Shown here one piece after another: positions 5,656 through 28,939 of a stretch of 64,000 nt of DNA (position 1 is the first letter of the stretch; the number at the start of each line of letters is the position of its first letter). The translations under genes were made by a program, and so were the position numbers. The notes below the pieces were generated by a model. That model worked only from the letters and a program-made list of their open reading frames with translations, was not told where the DNA came from and made no database searches. The stretch is taken from assembly GCA_047947115.1 (NCBI GenBank), contig CP170459.1, positions 1,248,001 through 1,312,000 on the forward strand, written 5' to 3'. This DNA comes from Verrucomicrobiota bacterium. GTDB lineage: Bacteria; Verrucomicrobiota; Verrucomicrobiia; Limisphaerales; AAA164-E04.

Positions 5656-7126
5656 GAACGGTGTCAAAAAAGCTAATCATAACTTCGCATATAAACGGAT
5701 GAGATGAGCCGCCATGTCAATGAGGGGCTTTTCTAAAAAGAAAAATGATCTCAAGCACCGGATAAACTTTACGCTTCGCTTGGAGTAGCGCTGGACGCAT
5801 TCGTACACCGTTGACCATTTTCTCCCGGCTTCTTTGGCAGCGTTTTTCATTGCTTCAAAACGAATTTGACGTCGACGAATTTCTGCTTCGTTGCTCACTC
5901 CGTAATCCTTTTCCAAATCATGCTCCATCAAGAGACAGAGGTTATGTGCCAGGCAAAGAAAGTTGGCTTGAATCTTCTTGGCCCGGACTGATCCGGCCCA
6001 TGCCTTTTTCTCCTGAAGTGTATTTTTAAACTCATCGAATACCTTCTCAATATCCCAACGCATCCGATATAGCTGTGCTAACAAACCTGGCGAAATAGTC
6101 AATTGATTGGTGATCAAAACGTGTTCCTTCCCAGTTTGCGGATCGACACATACGATACGTCGAAGAATGCTCTGGTTATTGACTATGATTTTTTTATCGG
6201 ACGTGATTCCGTGATTGAGACCATTTTCATGATCGATTTCCAGTTTATCCAGACATTCATAGGCAGTTCCGTCTTTCATGCGGGAAACAAAATAAATTCC
6301 ACCTCGTGATTTCCACCAATCCCACTCATCGAAATCGATGGACGCAGAGTCATACACATAGAGAACTTTGCGTCCCGTCTTGGCACCCTGCCTGAGTGTT
6401 TCGATACCCATCCTTTTGAGGGCTCGCATGTCATGCTCATGCTTACGATGAACCTCATCGGCTGTATCCAGCAACTTGATTGCATGGGATCTCAGATTCA
6501 GGGCGTAGAAGTAACCGGGAGCCCATTTCTTTTCATTCTTGCGTACTTCATGAGCCGAAGCACCATGCCAATGGCCATCAGCGGCATATATGTCATATTT
6601 TTTTAGTTCCTCAAAATCCTGAAGAGGGTCATTAAGTTCTTTGACAGCTTTAGCGCAAATACTATCATTTAATTCATCGGCAAGAAGGAGGCGTCGATTA
6701 CTTTTGAGAGATTCGAAATAAAGCCCCACAGAAACATCACTCTGAAAGTGGGGGCCGTATTGTTGGAGAAACCCTCGGCCGCTGGGGGATTCCATAAGAA
6801 TTCGGGTGACTCCTAATTCAAGCCAATGCTGGTCGGGTAATTCATTACATTGGCGAGTGTGAACAGCTCGATTCAAGGCGTCAAATAAAGGATTGAAGAA
6901 TGCTGCAAATATCTTATTATCAGTTAATAGTGCTCTTGGCATGAAAATTTTTTGGGGTCAGCGCGTCAGAGTCAACTTTAATCGCACAAAAACCGGGTAA
7001 ATTCTCTGTTTTAGAGCATTTTAATCTTTTTGAAACCATTGAAAAGAACCGAGTCAGTCAAGTGATTCCCGTCGCAGGAAACCGCTTTCAGGCGTCAAAT
7101 TGAGTTTCGCCCTTTTGACACCGTTC
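5656..7126 (-). mobile_element. IS4-family insertion sequence, 1471 bp
   Basis: Perfect 14-bp TIRs GAACGGTGTCAAAA (5656-5669) and TTTTGACACCGTTC (7113-7126); 8-bp direct repeat AACAAAAC at 5648-5655 and 7127-7134. Confidence 0.93.
5677..6942 (-). CDS. DDE transposase (IS4 family)
   Basis: 421 aa; AADG and VYDSASIDF motifs and the Y-x2-R-x3-E-x6-K motif (YRMRWDIEKVFDEFK). Confidence 0.9.
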   Translation of the reverse strand: MPRALLTDNKIFAAFFNPLFDALNRAVHTRQCNELPDQHWLELGVTRILMESPSGRGFLQQYGPHFQSDVSVGLYFESLKSNRRLLLADELNDSICAKAVKELNDPLQDFEELKKYDIYAADGHWHGASAHEVRKNEKKWAPGYFYALNLRSHAIKLLDTADEVHRKHEHDMRALKRMGIETLRQGAKTGRKVLYVYDSASIDFDEWDWWKSRGGIYFVSRMKDGTAYECLDKLEIDHENGLNHGITSDKKIIVNNQSILRRIVCVDPQTGKEHVLITNQLTISPGLLAQLYRMRWDIEKVFDEFKNTLQEKKAWAGSVRAKKIQANFLCLAHNLCLLMEHDLEKDYGVSNEAEIRRRQIRFEAMKNAAKEAGRKWSTVYECVQRYSKRSVKFIRCLRSFFFLEKPLIDMAAHLIRLYAKL

Positions 7127-21097: not shown

Positions 21098-21514
21098 TTA
21101 CCCTGCCATGGCGCTTGTCTTTTTCCCGGCCTGGATGGTGCAGCGGCGTTTTTCGAGTTCGACCATCTGGATGGGGGACATACCATAGAATGTCTTCACT
21201 TCGGAAATAAAATGGCTGTAACGCTTGAATCCTAGGTAAACTGAGATGTGTTTTAACGGGAATCCTTCGCGTATCAGGTAGCGAGCACGGACCATACGCT
21301 GTTGTCTCAGCCAGTACTTGGGACTGACTCCCAGTGAATCATAAAACATACGTTCCATGTGGCGTGGAGTGAGCCCCAACACCTTGGACAACTGGCTCAC
21401 TTTGTATTCGCTTTGGAATGCCAGTTCAATCAGGTTCACCGACTGTTGAACCCGCTTGGGTGAATCGAACATGACTCTTCCATTTCTGATAACAATCATA
21501 ACGCTGATTTCCAA
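21098..21514 (-). CDS. AraC-family HTH-only transcriptional regulator
   Basis: LSKVLGLTPRHMERMF..LGVSPKYWLRQQRM..LGFKRYSHF..FYGMSP double HTH; no sensor domain. Confidence 0.85.
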   Translation of the reverse strand: MEISVMIVIRNGRVMFDSPKRVQQSVNLIELAFQSEYKVSQLSKVLGLTPRHMERMFYDSLGVSPKYWLRQQRMVRARYLIREGFPLKHISVYLGFKRYSHFISEVKTFYGMSPIQMVELEKRRCTIQAGKKTSAMAG

Positions 21515-22016
21515 TAAGTTATACCATCATGGACCAGAAGCTGAGGCTGACAATAAAAAACAGTACCAAAAATGCGACATTTTGTTCACTTAAAAAGTGT
21601 GGTCTCCTAATGAGATCCATTTCTCTTAGTATTCTCTCTTTTTTTTCTTGGAAAAATCGTATATAACAGACAAGTAATAGGTAAGTCTTGAATGGCTTGT
21701 CTAAAAGGAAGTTCAACTCTCCTGTTCAAGGGAGAGGCCGAGAACATAATTCTGTTGCTGGGCAACTACTTCATCATGATTGTGTTCTACATAAGAATCG
21801 TCTTCTGGGTTGTTACGACCTGTGGATTTTGGTCCGGGAATGCAGATGACGATTCGGTTTGATGTCCGTCTCCTCTTTGACCTTGGGCTGGATTTGCAAA
21901 CTGTTACAATCCTACTATTCGTTTTTTATGCCACTTCCCAGAAAGAAGGGTTCGGTGTGAGGTTACTTGATTCTGCAAAGTAGCTTGTAACAGGGATGAT
22001 TGCTCAATGAAAGATC

Positions 22017-23444
22017 ATGGAAGCAGCACAGAAAATAATTTCCGACGATGACAGTCTGGTCTTGTGTGTCAACAGCCAGGGGCACGAACTCCGTGCCACA
22101 CCGGTTCGGCTAACCCGACATCTCGTTGTTTTTGAAGTATATAATCCCTATAGTATATTACAGCTTTCTGAGGTACTGCAGGAATTCCAGATATATATCA
22201 ATCAACGCATGGTGTATTCCGGTCGCGCAGTGGTCAGCAATCTGGTCAATACCGGAATTTTTCTCGTATGCGAAGCATCAATGGACGAAGGATGGCTGGA
22301 TGTGGACCTTACCCGTCCGATCAAAGCAGCCAATGTGCTGCGTTCTGAGTTCGATCAGTTCATCGAGGAGTACAAGAAGCATGATCTGGTATTGCCTGAT
22401 TTCAAACTCGTTGTTGCGGACCTGCAGGGATTCCTTGTTGAACTGAGGCGTTGGCTTGAAAAGCTGGAGTTTGTCATCCGGTCCAATCCGAGTGGCGACC
22501 GTTACCACCAGGAAGTTGAGATTATCAATGATGTTCTCAACCCGGCCCTACCCATGCTGGCGGAGTATTTTGAACGGTTCGAGAAGGCTGCCCTGAGTGT
22601 GGACGGAAATCTGCAACCCGTTCATCGTTTTTATGTCCGAAGGCAGCTGCATCCCATCGTCCTGTGCGCCCCCTTCAGTTGGCGCACCTATACCAAGCCT
22701 CTTGGATATGCAGGCGATTACGAGATGGTGAACATGATGACCCGTCCTCCTTATGAGGGGAGTTCCTTGTTTGCAAAGATCCTGAACACGTTCTTTCTGA
22801 ATTCGGCTCCTGTGGTGGCGCATCAGAATCGCATCCATTACCTCAAGGAAAACCTCAAGAACGAGATCAAACGGGTTACTGAACAATACGGCAGAAAAGC
22901 CCGTATTTTCAATCTTGGATGCGGTCCCGCCAGGGAGCTGCAGGAATTGCTGGAAGATGATATTGCGGATCAGGCAGAGATCTTGTTGCTGGATTTCAAT
23001 GAGGAAACATTGAGGAACATTCAGCAGGTGTTTGGTGAGTTGGTCAACAAACACTGCAGGACGACGCAAATCACCACGCTGCTGAAAAGTGTGCACCAAG
23101 TGCTTAAAGAAGCTCACAAAGAAACCGATGAGTTCACTAAGAATCACTATGACGTCGTGTATTGTGCCGGTCTTTTTGACTATCTATCGGATCGTATCTG
23201 TAAGAGATTGACCGCCATCTTCTACGATTTGCTTGCGCCGGAAGGACTGATGATCACCACCAACGTGCATGCCAGTAATCCATCGCGCAAATGCATGGAG
23301 TTCATTTTGGATTGGCATCTGGTTTACCGTAACGACGAAACCTTCAGCAGCCTGAATCCGGATCAACTCCCTGATGGAGTCTCTTCTTTGGATCATGATT
23401 CGACAGGTGTGAACGTCTTCAATGTGGTCCGTAAACCAAAATGA
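22017..23444 (+). CDS. phcB: PhcB-like class I SAM-dependent methyltransferase (putative 3-hydroxy fatty acid methyl ester synthase)
   Basis: 475 aa; EVYNPYSILQLSEVL, AVVSNLVNTG, LHP..APF..RTYTKPLGYAGDYEMVN, AHQNRI, NLGCGPARE and YCAGLFDYLSD are motifs recalled from Ralstonia/Cupriavidus PhcB. Confidence 0.8.
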   Translation: MEAAQKIISDDDSLVLCVNSQGHELRATPVRLTRHLVVFEVYNPYSILQLSEVLQEFQIYINQRMVYSGRAVVSNLVNTGIFLVCEASMDEGWLDVDLTRPIKAANVLRSEFDQFIEEYKKHDLVLPDFKLVVADLQGFLVELRRWLEKLEFVIRSNPSGDRYHQEVEIINDVLNPALPMLAEYFERFEKAALSVDGNLQPVHRFYVRRQLHPIVLCAPFSWRTYTKPLGYAGDYEMVNMMTRPPYEGSSLFAKILNTFFLNSAPVVAHQNRIHYLKENLKNEIKRVTEQYGRKARIFNLGCGPARELQELLEDDIADQAEILLLDFNEETLRNIQQVFGELVNKHCRTTQITTLLKSVHQVLKEAHKETDEFTKNHYDVVYCAGLFDYLSDRICKRLTAIFYDLLAPEGLMITTNVHASNPSRKCMEFILDWHLVYRNDETFSSLNPDQLPDGVSSLDHDSTGVNVFNVVRKPK

Positions 23445-26218
23445 GACTTTCCCAACAAGTCCAACTGACCCCTGAGATGCATCGTGCCCAGATGGAGTAC
23501 GAAATGCCTCTGGTGGTTCAGAATTATCGGATTGCCTGTCTGTTCGGTATCATATTCATGCCTTTCGGAGGTGTGTTGGACTATCTGGTATATCCCAGGT
23601 ATCTCGAATACTTTTTATGGTTGAGGCTGGAATGTTCCGTTTTGCTGTGCATGATCTGGTGGTTGTTGGGCCAACCCTTTGGCAGAAAATTTTATCGCCC
23701 TCTCGGTCTCATTGAGGTCATTCTCCCCATCTTTTTTCTGTCATGGATGATTTTTGAAACCGAAGGCATGCATTCGGATTACTATGCCGGCATCAACCTT
23801 GTTTTGGTTGGTGTGGGGTTCCTGATGCGCTGGGGACTTGCCGACACCACTCGCATGGTGTTCATCAGCATTCTTCTTTATCTGGGGGCATGTCTTGCCC
23901 GGACCAACTCCATCTCCAGCCTTGGCGAGGCCAAGGATTTATTGTATTCACTCTATTTCATCGTCCTCACCGGGATCATCAGTATGACCGGCAATTTTCT
24001 CTACAATTTGAATCGCACACGCGAATTTGCCCTGCGCTTTGAATTGGATGAAAACCGGCGTCAGCTCGAAAAGAACAACCGAAAACTTCAGGAGCTGGAC
24101 CGGGTCAAGAATCGTTTCTTTGCCAATATCAGTCATGAGTTGCGCACCCCGTTGACGTTGTTGTTGACGCCCCTTGAGTCACTGATCGCCAAAGGGCAGA
24201 ACGCCTTTGCTCCAGACGTGCGTGAAACGCTGCATGCCATGCAGGCCAACGGTATGCGCCTGTTGAAATTGATCAACGATCTGCTGGACCTGGTGCGTCT
24301 GGAATCGGGCAAGTTGAAAATCACCGCCCAGGAAGTGAAGGTCGAGTCCTTCGTCAAGGGAATCATCGCTTCGGTGCGGAAAGCCGCCGAAGATCGCGGG
24401 ATCAAGGTTCAGGCGGATATTTATGATACCGAACTGGTGCTGCAAACCGATGGCGACAAGCTGGAAAAGGTTCTGTTGAACCTCATTTTCAATGCGGTGA
24501 AGTTTACCAGTCCGGGTGGTGTGGTTCGCGTGTCTGCTTATGCAGAGGAGGGGCAAGTAATCATCGAAGTAGCCGATACCGGGATCGGTATTCCGCAAGA
24601 AAGTCTGGCTTTTATTTTTGATCGATTCTGGCAAGTGGACAATTCAAGCAAGCGGAAACATCAAGGCGCGGGAATTGGTCTGGCATTGGTCAAAGAGTTT
24701 GTGGAACTCCTCAAAGGAACCGTGGATGTCAGAAGCGAGGAAGGAAAAGGCACCGAGTTTATTATGCGTTTTCCCACACGCCTGCAACAAGTGTCCGAAT
24801 CGGAAAAATTGTCCCAAGAAGCGGACGATTCAGAAGTCAGCGCTGCCCCCACGACAGGAGAAAAGGGTTCTCTACCTCTCCCTGTTGTCTCCACAGCTTC
24901 GGGCGACCAGGAGGAGGGTTCGGATGAAGACGACAACAAAGAGTGGTTGTCAAAACTATATCGCCGTGCGGAACTCTTCCCTGTTTCTTCATTGGAACCG
25001 ACCCGGGTTGGAAATGAGCTTCCGGTACGAGGGAAATCCCGCCCATTGTTGCTGGTGGCGGATGATGAACCCGATATGGTTCGATTCCTTCGCAGCCAAC
25101 TCGAGACACATTACGAAATCATGGAGGCACAGGATGGACAGGAAGCGATCGACAAGGCGCGGCAATTCCTTCCTGACATTATCCTGACCGACATGATGAT
25201 GCCGGAAAAGGACGGACTCCAGGTGTGTCAGGAATTGCGCCGAAACACTTCCACCGAGAACATTCCCATCATCCTGCTCACAGCACGCGTGGATGAAGAT
25301 ATCAAACTGTCGGCGCTGCAGTCGGGAGCAAGCGATTTTCTTACCAAACCTTTTTCACTGGCTGAAATCCATGTGCGCCTGAAAAATCTTTCCGACTCCT
25401 ATCTCTTTCAACGTTCGCTGGCTCGCCAGAAGAAAAAACTGGAAGTTACCCTGGAGGAACTGAAGGAAACTGAAACCCAACTGGTGCAATCCGAAAAGAT
25501 GGCCTCTCTGGGCAAGATGAGTGCCGGCATTCTCCACGAAATTAACAATCCCCTGAACTTTGCCAAAACAGGTTCCTACACCCTCCGGGAATTTGCCCAT
25601 CAACTCCCGGAACAGGATCGAGAGGATTTTCGCGATATCCTCAAGGATGTGGAAGAGGGCATTACGCGAGTATCTGAAATCGTGAAGGATTTGCGAGGTT
25701 TCAGCCATCCCGACAACGAGCAAAAAACGGGTGTTTCCGTGGAACTCGTGATCATGAAATCAATTCGCTTGTTGAGCAACGAAGTCAAGCACTTCGAAGT
25801 AAACGAGGATGTGCCGGAAGGCCTTGAAGTATACGGCAACGAGAATCAACTCGTGCAAGTGCTGGTAAATTTATTGCAAAATGCTTCCGATTCCTTAAAC
25901 TCCAAGGAATTCGCCGATGACACCGACGGTCCGACCATCCGGATCAAAGGATTCAAGGCGGACGGTCGCGTGCATCTCCTGGTGCGGGACAATGGTCAGG
26001 GTATTGATGATGCTCACCTCACTCGGATCTTCGATCCATTCTATACGACCAAAGATGTCGGGGAAGGAATGGGATTGGGGCTGAGTATTTGCTACAAAAT
26101 TATGGAAAATCACCAGGGCACGATCAAAGTAAAAACCGAACACCTCGCTTTTACTGAGTTTGATTTGATCTTTCCCGATCCGGATTCACTGGTGAACGAC
26201 AAAGATTCGACAGAATGA
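23441..26218 (+). CDS. PhcS-like membrane hybrid sensor kinase (TM-HK-REC-HK)
   Basis: About 6 TM helices; SHELRTPL with HATPase; REC (ADDEPD, TDMMMP, TKPF); second H-box HEINNPLN with HATPase; ATGA overlap with phcB. Confidence 0.9.
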   Translation: MRLSQQVQLTPEMHRAQMEYEMPLVVQNYRIACLFGIIFMPFGGVLDYLVYPRYLEYFLWLRLECSVLLCMIWWLLGQPFGRKFYRPLGLIEVILPIFFLSWMIFETEGMHSDYYAGINLVLVGVGFLMRWGLADTTRMVFISILLYLGACLARTNSISSLGEAKDLLYSLYFIVLTGIISMTGNFLYNLNRTREFALRFELDENRRQLEKNNRKLQELDRVKNRFFANISHELRTPLTLLLTPLESLIAKGQNAFAPDVRETLHAMQANGMRLLKLINDLLDLVRLESGKLKITAQEVKVESFVKGIIASVRKAAEDRGIKVQADIYDTELVLQTDGDKLEKVLLNLIFNAVKFTSPGGVVRVSAYAEEGQVIIEVADTGIGIPQESLAFIFDRFWQVDNSSKRKHQGAGIGLALVKEFVELLKGTVDVRSEEGKGTEFIMRFPTRLQQVSESEKLSQEADDSEVSAAPTTGEKGSLPLPVVSTASGDQEEGSDEDDNKEWLSKLYRRAELFPVSSLEPTRVGNELPVRGKSRPLLLVADDEPDMVRFLRSQLETHYEIMEAQDGQEAIDKARQFLPDIILTDMMMPEKDGLQVCQELRRNTSTENIPIILLTARVDEDIKLSALQSGASDFLTKPFSLAEIHVRLKNLSDSYLFQRSLARQKKKLEVTLEELKETETQLVQSEKMASLGKMSAGILHEINNPLNFAKTGSYTLREFAHQLPEQDREDFRDILKDVEEGITRVSEIVKDLRGFSHPDNEQKTGVSVELVIMKSIRLLSNEVKHFEVNEDVPEGLEVYGNENQLVQVLVNLLQNASDSLNSKEFADDTDGPTIRIKGFKADGRVHLLVRDNGQGIDDAHLTRIFDPFYTTKDVGEGMGLGLSICYKIMENHQGTIKVKTEHLAFTEFDLIFPDPDSLVNDKDSTE

Positions 26219-26238
26219 GACTTTAACAATCGGCAAAA

Positions 26239-27513
26239 ATGGACAACCTCTACGATTACAAAAAGTTTGCCATCCTCTATGTGGATGACGAAGAAAAGTC
26301 ACTGAAATACTTTCAACGAGCTTTCGGGACCAAATTTCGCGTGTTCGTCGCAACCAACGCCAAGGATGGTTACCGCGTATTCGAGGAACACCGCAATGAA
26401 ATCGGCATCCTCCTCACTGACCAACGCATGCCTGGTGAGAAAGGAGTACAACTTCTCGAAAAAGTGCGGGCTATCAAACCCAACGTCATCCGTATTCTGG
26501 TGACCGCCTACAGCGACTTTGAGGCCGCGATCGATGCCGTGAACACAGGGGCCATTTACAAATATATATCCAAACCCTGGGATGTTGCGGATCTGGAAAT
26601 CACTCTCCGGCGCGCCATGGAATTCTTCCTGGTGCATCATGAACGGGACCGCCTCATGCGCCAGAAGTTCACCGCTCTGCATAAAACCCTGATCCTCGAT
26701 CGTGTGGTTGGCCTGACCGTTCTTGCCTCCGGCATAGCGCGACTTTATCGGAACTCATTGGATGCGGTTCGGGCTTACATGGAGCTGGATTCGCAGAACC
26801 CTACCATGGACGACCTGCAGCTGTCCGAACTCAACAATCCGAACCTCTATCGCAAACTCTATATGCAGACGCGGGAACAGATCCACAGGGTGGTTAATGT
26901 CCTGCAACTGGAAGGATTCACTGAGAAGGAAGGTCCCAACGCGAGTTCGCTTGAAGAGACCCAACTGATCTCGGTGCTTCAAAACACACTGAAATCCTTC
27001 CAACCCCAGTTTCAGCAAAAAGGCATTGAAGTCGGATTTGAGACACTGCAAAACCCTGAAGTGATCGTCTCGGAAACCAAACGATTTCAGAAACTCCAGG
27101 ACCTGATCATCCAGAACCTGCTTCTGTACATTCCTGACAACACCAAAGTCAGAATCGTGGTATTCACCCAAAAAGCAGGTTCCAGTGGGACCAGTGTTTG
27201 CATCAGTGTGGAAGATGGATCCGATAAAACACCGATCTCCGGTACCCGAGCCATCCTGGACCCCTTCTTCACAACTGACGCCCTCCTGCATCACCTGGGA
27301 CTGAACCTGTTGGCCATATCGGTCCTGACCTATCACCTCGGAGGGAGTGTTGGGTACGATCAGGCACAAGGAGATTACTGCAACCGTTTACGAATCACGC
27401 TTCCGCTTAAACTGAGCTATCTCCCCGAAGAAACCACCGAAGTAGCGTCACTGGAGAAAGCCCTGATCAACGAGTCCCTATGGGAAACCGTGATCAGCCA
27501 GATGGAAAACTGA
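26239..27513 (+). CDS. PhcR-like response regulator (REC plus degenerate histidine-kinase-like domain)
   Basis: ILYVDDE, TDQRMPG, VTAYSD, KYISKPW; C-terminal kinase-like region with ILDPFFT but no H-box His. Confidence 0.8.
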   Translation: MDNLYDYKKFAILYVDDEEKSLKYFQRAFGTKFRVFVATNAKDGYRVFEEHRNEIGILLTDQRMPGEKGVQLLEKVRAIKPNVIRILVTAYSDFEAAIDAVNTGAIYKYISKPWDVADLEITLRRAMEFFLVHHERDRLMRQKFTALHKTLILDRVVGLTVLASGIARLYRNSLDAVRAYMELDSQNPTMDDLQLSELNNPNLYRKLYMQTREQIHRVVNVLQLEGFTEKEGPNASSLEETQLISVLQNTLKSFQPQFQQKGIEVGFETLQNPEVIVSETKRFQKLQDLIIQNLLLYIPDNTKVRIVVFTQKAGSSGTSVCISVEDGSDKTPISGTRAILDPFFTTDALLHHLGLNLLAISVLTYHLGGSVGYDQAQGDYCNRLRITLPLKLSYLPEETTEVASLEKALINESLWETVISQMEN

Positions 27514-27647: not shown

Positions 27648-27778
27648 ACATTTTTTGTTCTGGGCTCACATGAGGGGTTACGGTGAGAAGATGGTCCGTT
27701 GGGAGGAAACCTTTCCCTCGACTTCCCATGGATGGTTTGCTAGTTGTTTCCACGTCTGGTGCTGCCAACATATTTATC

Positions 27779-28147
27779 ATGACTCCTTTTCAAATCATTT
27801 TTAATCCGACCAGTGCTCGGGAGTTGTCCAAGTTGCCGAAGGAGCTTCAGTTGGATGTTCTCGGGGATTTTCGTGGGTTTCCGCAGGACGTGCGGTCCAG
27901 GGATCTGGATCGTTTCGGTAAGTTGGAACGTCAGGGTAAGCAGCTGTATCGCTATCGTCTTGGGGAATATCGCGTTTATTTTCAGAGATGTGATCTGGGG
28001 ATTATCGTTCATCGTATTCTGAACAAGAACACGTTGAAGGATTTCCTATTTCGCTCCAGTCTTCCAACGGGCGAAGATGAGGCGTTGCAGGAAAATCCGA
28101 AGTTCTGGGAGTTGATGGAGGTGAATCCTTCGTCCGGCGGCAACTGA
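27779..28147 (+). CDS. RelE/ParE-fold protein without adjacent antitoxin
   Basis: FQIIFNPTSARELSKLP...LYRYRLGEYRVYF...IIVHRI; ATG 27779 preferred over GTG 27683. Confidence 0.65.
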   Translation: MTPFQIIFNPTSARELSKLPKELQLDVLGDFRGFPQDVRSRDLDRFGKLERQGKQLYRYRLGEYRVYFQRCDLGIIVHRILNKNTLKDFLFRSSLPTGEDEALQENPKFWELMEVNPSSGGN

Positions 28148-28157
28148 GCTCTGGTGT

Positions 28158-28784
28158 TCAGGATACGTCTTCTCCGATTTCGACGTTCCAGTAGGCGATG
28201 TCCAAAAAGTGACGCCAGCTTGAGTGGCTGTTCAGTGTGAAGTTGACCTGCACGAATGGTCGCCATTTGGGGCGTTTCGGTTTGCGGATCAGATGCATGC
28301 CTGCTTCCGGCGGGGTGCGGTTGGCTTTGCGGGTGTTACAGGGAATGCAGGAGCAGACAATGTTTTCCCAGGTGGTTGGTCCTCCCCGGTCACGTGGAAC
28401 AACATGATCAAGGTTAAGCAATTTTCGCTCAAGAATTTTGCCGCAGTACTGGCACTGGTTTCGATCCCGCTCAAAGATGTTGTGGCGCGTGAATTTGACT
28501 TCTTTCTTCGGGAACCGGTCATACACCAACAGCAAAATGACTTTGGGTATCCCGATTTTGAATGAGATGGTGTTTATCTGGTCCTCTTCCCCGGATTCCT
28601 GTTCGACGGAGAAATCTTTCCATTCGCCGAAATCGTATGTGTGGAAGGCTCCGGTTGGGGATTCATAGACAACCTGGGCCCTTCCCTCGAAGAGAAGGGT
28701 CAATGCTCTGCGCGCCGAACAGACGTTGACTGCCTGCCAAAGTCGATTGAGCACGAGCACAGGTTGTTGCAATACACAAGCCAT
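28158..28784 (-). CDS. HNH endonuclease (McrA/HNH_5-like)
   Basis: VLVLN, RHNIFERD, CQYCG, LDHVVPRDRGG..WENIVCSCIPCNTRK; the ORF extends to 28847. Confidence 0.9.
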   Translation of the reverse strand: MACVLQQPVLVLNRLWQAVNVCSARRALTLLFEGRAQVVYESPTGAFHTYDFGEWKDFSVEQESGEEDQINTISFKIGIPKVILLLVYDRFPKKEVKFTRHNIFERDRNQCQYCGKILERKLLNLDHVVPRDRGGPTTWENIVCSCIPCNTRKANRTPPEAGMHLIRKPKRPKWRPFVQVNFTLNSHSSWRHFLDIAYWNVEIGEDVS

Positions 28785-28939
28785 GAGCTTTGCGAGGTTG
28801 CGTATTGTGCTAACAGAGGCGTTGACGTCTGTCAATTCACCGTTCATAAATGTAACCGGTTTATCGATGAAATGTCACACATAGCCCTCTTTTGGGGTGG
28901 TAGCATGACGTCGGTTCAATCCAAGTAAGGAATTTAAAT

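Follow-up and report, generated by a model that had tools for sequence, protein, structure and literature searches.

A candidate Phc-type synthase-sensor cassette with a two-kinase hybrid sensor in a Verrucomicrobiota bacterium

A 64,000-nucleotide (nt) stretch of the genome of a Verrucomicrobiota bacterium (GCA_047947115.1, contig CP170459.1, positions 1,248,001-1,312,000, forward strand), hereafter the window, carries three co-oriented genes that resemble the Phc cassette of Ralstonia. All coordinates refer to this window unless another contig is named. The genes are: (i) gene 1 (P0001; 22017..23444, + strand), which encodes a 475-aa PhcB-type, S-adenosylmethionine (SAM)-dependent methyltransferase and predicted signal synthase; (ii) gene 2 (P0002; 23441..26218, + strand), which encodes a 925-aa hybrid kinase made up of a PhcS-type sensor, a first kinase module, a receiver, and a second, PhcS-type kinase module; and (iii) gene 3 (P0003; 26239..27513, + strand), which encodes a 424-aa receiver plus degenerate kinase-like protein of the PhcQ/PhcR family. 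The stop codon of gene 1 and the start codon of gene 2 share a 4-nt ATGA overlap (23441-23444, within aaaATGAga), and the TGA stop codon of gene 2 (26216-26218) is followed by 20 nt and then by the ATG of gene 3 at 26239. A preliminary description of this DNA had claimed this orientation, overlap, and gap, which the open reading frame (ORF) coordinates and the sequence both bear out. Pfam places a class I SAM methyltransferase in gene 1, HisKA and HATPase_c, Response_reg, and a second HATPase_c in gene 2, and Response_reg only in gene 3. The three-gene arrangement is real and far beyond chance. In a sample of 401 genomes from the phylum, every one of the 14 further genomes with a PhcB homolog repeats the same gene order.

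In the Ralstonia literature, PhcB is described as making methyl 3-hydroxymyristate and PhcS as sensing it (PMC8578825; PMC11960443). P0001 is 37% identical to the PhcB of Ralstonia sp. R-29 (residues 12-468 vs. residues 8-458, E 4e-101). Because this alignment is full-length, the likeness is not one of the generic SAM fold alone, an outcome for which the preliminary description had allowed; gene 1 is a PhcB homolog along its whole length, including the approximately 290 residues ahead of the methyltransferase fold. P0001 also aligns with a plasmid-borne homolog from Paraburkholderia graminis (36.7% identity, 96% coverage), which sits in a phcBS-type locus; the genes after it encode a kinase of 445 aa and receiver proteins. 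The Pfam class I methyltransferase match covers residues ~295-418, with Methyltransf_12 and Methyltransf_25 above the cut-off. P0001 contains the three motifs that the preliminary description had cited for PhcB (YNPYSI at residue 42, VNTG at residue 77, and TKPLGYAGDYEMVN at residue 226), and most of their residues fall in columns that are invariant or ≥90% conserved among 22 family members from Verrucomicrobiota, Omnitrophica, and Betaproteobacteria, Ralstonia and Cupriavidus included. In the same alignment, invariant columns occur in the N-terminal, KPLGYAGDY, and SAM-binding parts, and thus in all three domains, and the class I SAM-binding motifs are intact (columns C302, G303, P304, D326, and C383-L386 are invariant).

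The AlphaFold model of P0001 (predicted local distance difference test, pLDDT, 85.8 overall) has three parts: an N-terminal beta-barrel (aa 14-89; 22056..22283, + strand), a helical middle domain that holds the invariant KPLGYAGDY (aa 100-291; 22314..22889, + strand; columns K227-Y235), and a Rossmann-fold methyltransferase domain with the SAM motif LGCGPA at aa 300 (aa 295-472; 22899..23432, + strand). Modeled alone, the barrel reaches a pLDDT of 80.8, and its top Foldseek rows are mostly PilZ proteins (BcsA, PP4397, YcgR, MrkH, VCA0042, and Alg44), with template-modeling (TM) scores of 0.5-0.6 and weak E-values (7e-3 to 0.1). These models point, at weak E-values, to a PilZ-like beta-barrel as the fold of the N-terminal domain throughout the PhcB family, including the Ralstonia proteins. 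The assignment is one of fold alone, because Pfam PilZ matches 0/22 of the family members at E ≤ 1; the RxxxR motif ahead of the barrel is absent from P0001, as read from its sequence. In the Atlas, PilZ-methyltransferase clusters of Myxococcota and Nitrospirota adjoin the PhcB family. The best fold match of the whole P0001 model is an unannotated Bordetella protein (3ocj), followed by small-molecule and polyketide synthase (PKS) C-methyltransferases; the top matches are thus small-molecule and acyl-carrier-linked C-methyltransferases, not protein methyltransferases. A sequence search of solved structures with P0001 gave no match at E ≤ 0.01.

Gene 2 had been described as a sensor kinase of the PhcS type. 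Pfam matches on P0002 comprise HisKA/HATPase_c (223-446), Response_reg (538-647), and a second HATPase_c (803-905). Ahead of these lies a membrane-embedded sensor with five to six hydrophobic segments joined by short loops (aa 24-190; 23510..24010, + strand). This N-terminal membrane region is 28% identical to the N-terminus of Ralstonia PhcS over 177 aa (E 1e-18), and the hydropathy windows of the two sensors are alike. At the other end of the protein, residues 660-912 are 36% identical to PhcS residues 196-444 over 256 aa (E 2e-49), and His699 of gene 2 aligns with the H-box histidine of PhcS. In strain OE1-1 this histidine is H230 and is required for signaling (PMC11960443). Since the sensor and the kinase core of PhcS match separately, gene 2 reads as a PhcS split by an inserted kinase and receiver. 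The inserted part comprises kinase module 1 (aa 223-446; 24107..24778, + strand), in which HisKA (7.3e-26) and HATPase_c (3.9e-53) are matched, the putative phospho-accepting residue is His232, and the N, G1, and G2 boxes are intact, and an internal receiver domain (aa 538-647; 25052..25381, + strand; Response_reg 5.5e-28) with Asp584. Kinase module 2, of the PhcS type, follows (aa 660-912; 25418..26176, + strand). The earlier assignment therefore holds for the membrane sensor and the kinase core, both homologous to those of PhcS, but gene 2 differs from a plain PhcS in being a 925-aa hybrid with two kinases; the single-core architecture of PhcS, in which the sensor is joined directly to one kinase core (~445 aa), is not matched by it.

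In a tree of kinase cores (48 rows, with several long branches), the kinase 1 cores form a clade of their own (support 99, starred). A split with a support of only 84 (unstarred) separates kinase 1 and the PhcR cores from kinase 2, the PhcS cores, and the gene-3 pseudokinases. The linker between kinase 1 and the receiver (aa 447-537 of P0002; 24779-25051) is acidic and serine-rich, and is probably disordered; the 28 alignment gaps between gene 2 and its counterpart in a sister lineage may fall in this linker. Precomputed Pfam annotation places PF20968 (MASE8) on the sensor region of 25/27 long-kinase relatives (P0283-P0308). A local Pfam scan found MASE8 below threshold only, and on Ralstonia PhcS only (E 0.058). 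The PhcS sensor may belong to the MASE8 family of membrane sensors.

Gene 3 had been likened to PhcR. Its receiver is complete (aa 12-120, with Asp61, Thr89, and Lys112). Over the receiver and linker helix, gene 3 is 40% identical to PhcQ (199 aa, E 2e-45), as compared with an E-value of 1e-26 over 141 aa for PhcR; profile-profile comparison likewise gives E 3e-52 over 181 columns for PhcQ vs. 9.5e-39 over 137 columns for PhcR. Alignments of gene 3 to PhcQ end near residue 210, and the remainder aligns weakly with kinase domains (aa 140-392; 26656..27414, + strand). Within this region, Arg168 replaces the H-box histidine, and the G1 box and the N-box asparagine are lost. As the phospho-histidine, the G1 box, and the N-box asparagine are all gone, gene 3 is predicted to encode a receiver plus pseudokinase. 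No Pfam kinase domain is found in P0003, whereas Ralstonia PhcR has receiver, HisKA, and HATPase_c domains; the only NCBIfam matches to the kinase region are weak ones (AtoS 7.9e-10, ZraS 1.4e-8). Gene-3 orthologs align end to end with PhcR across the receiver, the part resembling a dimerization and histidine-phosphotransfer (DHp) domain, and the ATPase-like part. In the ortholog alignment the H-box histidine is kept in two sequences, lost in three, and replaced by Arg168 here; none of the Verrucomicrobiota sequences retains the N-box asparagine, and within the alignment the loss of the G1 box is unique to the gene 3 of this genome. The layout of gene 3 is thus PhcR-like, as had been claimed, but its receiver and linker are nearer to PhcQ, its H-box and G1 box are lost, and its kinase-like half does not group with the PhcR cores (support 84).

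Despite these losses, gene 3 is not decaying, because its ratio of nonsynonymous to synonymous substitution rates (dN/dS) against the sister lineage (0.025) is similar to those of gene 1 (0.020) and the housekeeping gene ychF (0.024). These ratios are rough, because dS is ~1.1-1.2 and hence near saturation, and the sister lineage consists of three near-identical loci from metagenome contigs (95% amino-acid identity), which count as one comparison.

The distribution of the cassette was surveyed in a phylum sample of 401 genomes from 185 genera, with cut-offs of E ≤ 1e-30 for a PhcB homolog and E ≤ 1e-6 for a PhcS-type sensor. Both are found in exactly the same 15/401 genomes (9/185 genera, this genome counted), and neither occurs without the other. 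In each of the 14 other carriers the kinase gene directly follows the synthase gene, and a PhcQ-like receiver protein comes next in 12 of them. Relatives of the long kinase are full-length in 14/14 of these carriers, 13 as single ORFs of 862-1015 aa and one, in genome G290, as a split pair (L101:4395-5852 and 5925-7112). In G290 the first ORF (485 aa) holds the sensor and kinase 1, and the second (395 aa) holds a receiver remnant and kinase 2, a layout that resembles PhcS followed by PhcR. Families f6 and f9 (L103-L107; genomes G249, G033, G363, G096, and G294) have two further receiver-containing genes beyond the first PhcQ-like one. Each of the three carriers in family f14 also encodes another PhcS-type sensor domain away from the cassette, in an ORF of ~500-517 aa (sensor domains at G342:C8:82181-82762, G354:C17:55386-55937, and G369:C21:8738-9319); these ORFs may be additional short receptors.

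For comparison, species genomes were scanned with an alignment as seed, which yielded 80 betaproteobacterial loci (Paraburkholderia, Cupriavidus, Janthinobacterium, Ralstonia, and others) from a collection estimated to hold ~1600 matching stretches. The synthase gene lies directly upstream of a PhcS-type kinase gene in retrieved Burkholderiales loci also. The PhcS gene is a single ORF of 442-590 aa in 76 of the 80; in one locus it is split, in one it is cut by the contig end, and in two there is none in the stretch fetched. On these counts (14/14 vs. 76/80), the long kinase is the standard form in the phylum sample and the short kinase the standard form in Burkholderiales. In Ralstonia sp. R-29 (L080), the canonical order is seen, with phcB (464 aa), phcS (447 aa), phcR (384 aa), and phcQ (339 aa).

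Relatives of P0001 number 6079 proteins at E ≤ 1e-3 among 8000 candidates. Those with names are mostly from Verrucomicrobiota (Prosthecobacter, Roseimicrobium), with one from Omnitrophica, and close relatives carry the automatic JGI name "3-hydroxypalmitic acid methyl ester biosynthesis protein." Among named relatives, those nearest to genes 1 and 2 come from Verrucomicrobiota metagenome-assembled genomes (MAGs), at 75% and 73% identity, respectively, and a genome labeled as of the same class encodes a protein that agrees in every letter with one listed by NCBI under Prosthecobacter debontii. With the nearest named homologs in Verrucomicrobiota and this identical protein, the contig is not betaproteobacterial, a caveat that the preliminary description had raised. 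At E ≤ 1e-30 the synthase family comprises 519 clusters at 50% identity, one member being from a Tepidisphaeraceae MAG. A quick, midpoint-rooted FastTree phylogeny of the synthases (123 mostly unnamed rows) splits into two halves (support 100, starred). All nine betaproteobacterial rows group in a single tight clade (99, starred), nested in the half that holds the Verrucomicrobiota families f6, f9, f42, and f63 and the Tepidisphaeraceae protein; the synthase of the window lies in the other half, with f14 and Omnitrophica. As a lead rather than a result, the tree suggests that the Ralstonia and Cupriavidus proteins may be a small twig nested in a larger synthase family.

The likeness to the Ralstonia Phc system thus comprises a synthase homologous over its full length, a sensor with a homologous membrane domain and a homologous kinase core whose phospho-histidine is aligned, and a tightly packed order of synthase, sensor, and receiver protein of the PhcQ/PhcR group. 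The two differ in other respects. Here the kinase has 925 aa, with an extra HisKA-HATPase-receiver unit between sensor and core, and a single receiver protein with a dead kinase-like half takes the place of two; Ralstonia PhcR keeps Pfam HisKA and HATPase_c, and Ralstonia PhcQ is without a kinase remnant by Pfam. The host of the Ralstonia system is a betaproteobacterium of soil and plants, whereas the present organism belongs to Verrucomicrobiota from marsh, estuary, and sea water.

Two other types of system invite comparison. CqsA/CqsS of Vibrio and LqsA/LqsS of Legionella are alpha-hydroxyketone systems, in which the synthase gene lies beside the kinase gene with receiver proteins downstream, and the multi-helix membrane domain of CqsS/LqsS binds the hydrophobic autoinducer. 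They are alike in logic to the cassette (a synthase, a membrane-sensor kinase, and receivers), but the proteins are unrelated, CqsA and LqsA being pyridoxal phosphate (PLP)-dependent acyl transferases and not methyltransferases; no link between the window proteins and CqsA/CqsS or LqsA/LqsS turned up in the searches made. LvrA/LvrB of Leptospira, the top-ranking NCBIfam assignments of genes 2 and 3, likewise consist of a hybrid kinase/receiver protein followed by a receiver plus kinase-like protein, with the LvrB model aligning to P0003 residues 8-389. The scores are 302.7 bits against a cut-off of 1200 for LvrA, the match covering the generic kinase core (198-456) only, and 36.4 against 500 for LvrB. 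As these lie far below the curated cut-offs, genes 2 and 3 are not LvrA/LvrB members.

Upstream of gene 1 is a 502-nt spacer (21515..22016), presumed to contain the promoter and leader of the operon. Rfam gives no match in 21400-22200, and promoter-like and terminator-like sites are no commoner in the spacer than in shuffled sequences. The segment at 21596-21828 is densely polymorphic among environmental strains, and DNA and RNA assemblies tend to break there. Divergently oriented across the spacer is a gene for a small, stand-alone AraC-type helix-turn-helix (HTH) protein (21098..21514, - strand; 137 aa; Pfam HTH_18 2.9e-18). Its best matches outside this genome, among the 401 genomes, are in G327 and G081 (E ~1e-20, ORFs of ~134 aa), and both sit immediately downstream of the Phc-type cassettes of these genomes. 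The subfamily consists of stand-alone HTH proteins of ~130-137 aa with an N-terminal RNGRV motif; clear members (21098-21514 on the - strand; L097:8254-8646; L099:9676-10068; G000:C1:3762777-3763064) occur in only three of the 401 genomes, each of which has one copy beside its Phc-type cassette. The subfamily is not tied solely to the cassette, because a paralog in this genome (E 2.4e-19) lies elsewhere, next to apbE and sugar genes. As a lead only, the small AraC-type neighbor is a candidate output regulator. A predicted complex of gene 3 with this protein scored 0.19 (mark 0.32), which is no answer and counts as evidence neither way.

Downstream of the cassette, a 154-aa ORF (27683-28147, + strand) without a Pfam hit resembles, on visual inspection, a RelE/ParE-type toxin core, and is followed on the opposite strand by an HNH endonuclease gene (28158-28847, - strand). 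A sister contig (L108) has ~1.5 kb of extra DNA between the gene-3 homolog and the RelE/ParE-like 154-aa ORF. According to Pfam, no FadL, PKS, or DUF2156 protein and no CheB-like demethylase is encoded by the genes neighboring the cassette.

The stretch is represented in 20 public sequencing runs from 13 studies of marsh, estuary, seawater, and aquatic metagenomes, and RNA libraries account for six of these runs. Contigs of four metatranscriptome runs (four studies) span all three genes and bridge both junctions, which is compatible with expression but is proof neither of expression nor of a single transcript. In 3/4 of these RNA runs (three studies), contigs leave a gap between 21501-21503, where they end on the AraC side, and 21687-21747, where they begin again. 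A transcript start at 21687-21747 was considered on this weak hint. DNA runs cover the stretch 21501-21747 in 4/4 cases, yet their contigs also break at 21712-21767, in the polymorphic spacer, in two of the four, and for this reason no transcript start is claimed.

Taken together, full-length homology to PhcB, the presence of both PhcS-specific parts, the conserved gene order, the strict co-occurrence of synthase and sensor, and purifying selection support the reading of the three genes as a Phc-type synthase-sensor cassette. On balance, gene 1 probably makes a hydrophobic carboxylate methyl ester, which the sensor of gene 2 would detect, and a methyl-ester quorum signal, with somewhat better than even prospects, is the most likely function predicted from these sequences. 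The ester would most likely be a 3-hydroxy-fatty-acid methyl ester or a close analog; we infer that such a compound would be both made and sensed by this organism, as the preliminary description had proposed. In the mechanism that would follow, the ligand would bind inside the membrane-embedded sensor of gene 2, and binding would set the activity of kinase 1 (His232), which would phosphorylate the internal receiver (Asp584). This receiver would in turn gate the PhcS-type kinase 2 (His699), and kinase 2 would phosphorylate Asp61 of gene 3. In Ralstonia, PhcQ is reported to bind and stabilize PhcA, for which a charged tail is described (PMC13320629). Because gene 3 lacks a DNA-binding domain and its kinase domain is dead, it would work through a bound partner, as Ralstonia PhcQ works on PhcA.

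Several observations weigh against this interpretation. A PhcA ortholog was not found here: the query, a 356-aa LysR protein located ~14 kb from phcB in Ralstonia sp. R-29 and taken as PhcA from its position and charged tail, gave no match at E ≤ 0.01 in this genome, and in four other carriers it gave either nothing or only generic LysR matches, none stronger than 1.9e-9 (self-control 2e-243). This genome has four LysR-type proteins, none of them near the cassette. The kinase differs in architecture from all 76 of the intact betaproteobacterial PhcS genes, and, of the gene-3 orthologs, that of this genome is the most degenerate, with a very long end branch (2.62) in the kinase-core tree. At 37% identity to PhcB, the substrate of gene 1 could differ. 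The count of co-occurring synthases and sensors comes from related genomes (9 genera), which are not independent of one another, and the contigs from RNA libraries may include carried-over DNA. Finally, the organism occurs in marsh, estuary, and seawater metagenomes, and in such settings a diffusible signal would be diluted and is a less obvious means of sensing density.

Some of these points are equally those of a cell-autonomous circuit for envelope or lipid homeostasis, in which no signal is shared between cells; the methyltransferase would act inside the producer on a fatty acid or membrane lipid, modifying or detoxifying it, and the sensor would monitor the state of the membrane or free fatty acids. 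A sensor almost wholly embedded in the membrane, the open-water origin of the organism, and the missing PhcA-type global regulator would all suit such a circuit. The only characterized members of the PhcB family, by contrast, make an exported signal (PMC8578825 and PMC7694676), and the strict pairing of synthase and sensor in 15/15 carriers suits a dedicated ligand-receptor pair, although it is compatible with lipid homeostasis too. A purely internal function is considered rather unlikely on this evidence. The modest identity of gene 1 to PhcB also bears on what is being made. The signal might be no 3-hydroxy fatty acid methyl ester but some other methylated carboxylate or a C-methylated acyl compound, so that only the logic of the Phc system would be kept; the placement of the synthase in the half of the family tree opposite to the betaproteobacterial clade, and the PKS C-methyltransferases among the top fold matches, point in this direction. 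Against this, the columns conserved between Ralstonia and P0001 span all three domains, no PKS or FadL gene flanks the cassette, and a chemically different signal is given only a small chance.

It is very improbable that gene 1 makes no small molecule at all and is instead a CheR-like protein methyltransferase, which would act on the neighboring kinase in a chemotaxis-style adaptation rather than in signal synthesis. Weak matches to the Pfam CheR SAM-binding domain do occur in 14/22 of the family members (best E 5.3e-5), and one distant plasmid match is annotated as CheR. These CheR matches are limited to the generic SAM-binding half of the protein, the fold search ranks small-molecule methyltransferases first with no CheR among the rows shown, and no CheB-like demethylase is nearby; the Ralstonia ortholog, moreover, is described as a signal synthase (PMC8578825).

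In the literature, Phc is treated as peculiar to the wilt-causing Ralstonia and their near neighbors (the 2026 review PMC13220807 and the 2026 preprint 10.64898/2026.03.20.712958); the same preprint calls Phc "sporadically present" in the neighbors of the wilt pathogens, and PMC6989110 mentions Phc homologs only for Ralstonia, Cupriavidus, and Paraburkholderia. A literature search in which subscription journals were thinly covered found no description of Phc-type genes in Verrucomicrobiota, nor of the cassette outside Burkholderiales. Automatic annotation already names these proteins; the variant described here has a long, two-stage kinase and no detectable PhcA relative. The synthase-sensor pair is a conserved module in Verrucomicrobiota.

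We know of no autoinducer system described for Verrucomicrobiota. A broader picture may be drawn only tentatively, and has somewhat less than an even chance of being right: Verrucomicrobiota and other members of the Planctomycetes-Verrucomicrobia-Chlamydiae (PVC) group (e.g., Tepidisphaeraceae) would have a lipid methyl-ester signal family of their own for communication between cells, with a pseudokinase adaptor in the role of PhcA and a receptor built in two stages as a "kinase within a kinase," and the Ralstonia Phc system would be a late, slimmed-down offshoot of this larger and older family. On that picture, the system would be the first autoinducer circuit to be defined for Verrucomicrobiota, and cross-talk between environmental Verrucomicrobiota and Phc-using Burkholderiales would become possible. 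Should the product of gene 1 be a diffusible methyl ester, the long kinase would provide a natural example of a receiver-gated tandem kinase, and the pseudokinase adaptor would offer a route to output without PhcA. The culturable genera Prosthecobacter and Roseimicrobium have the same type of cassette, and such a product would give a directly testable entry into cell-cell signaling in Verrucomicrobiota.

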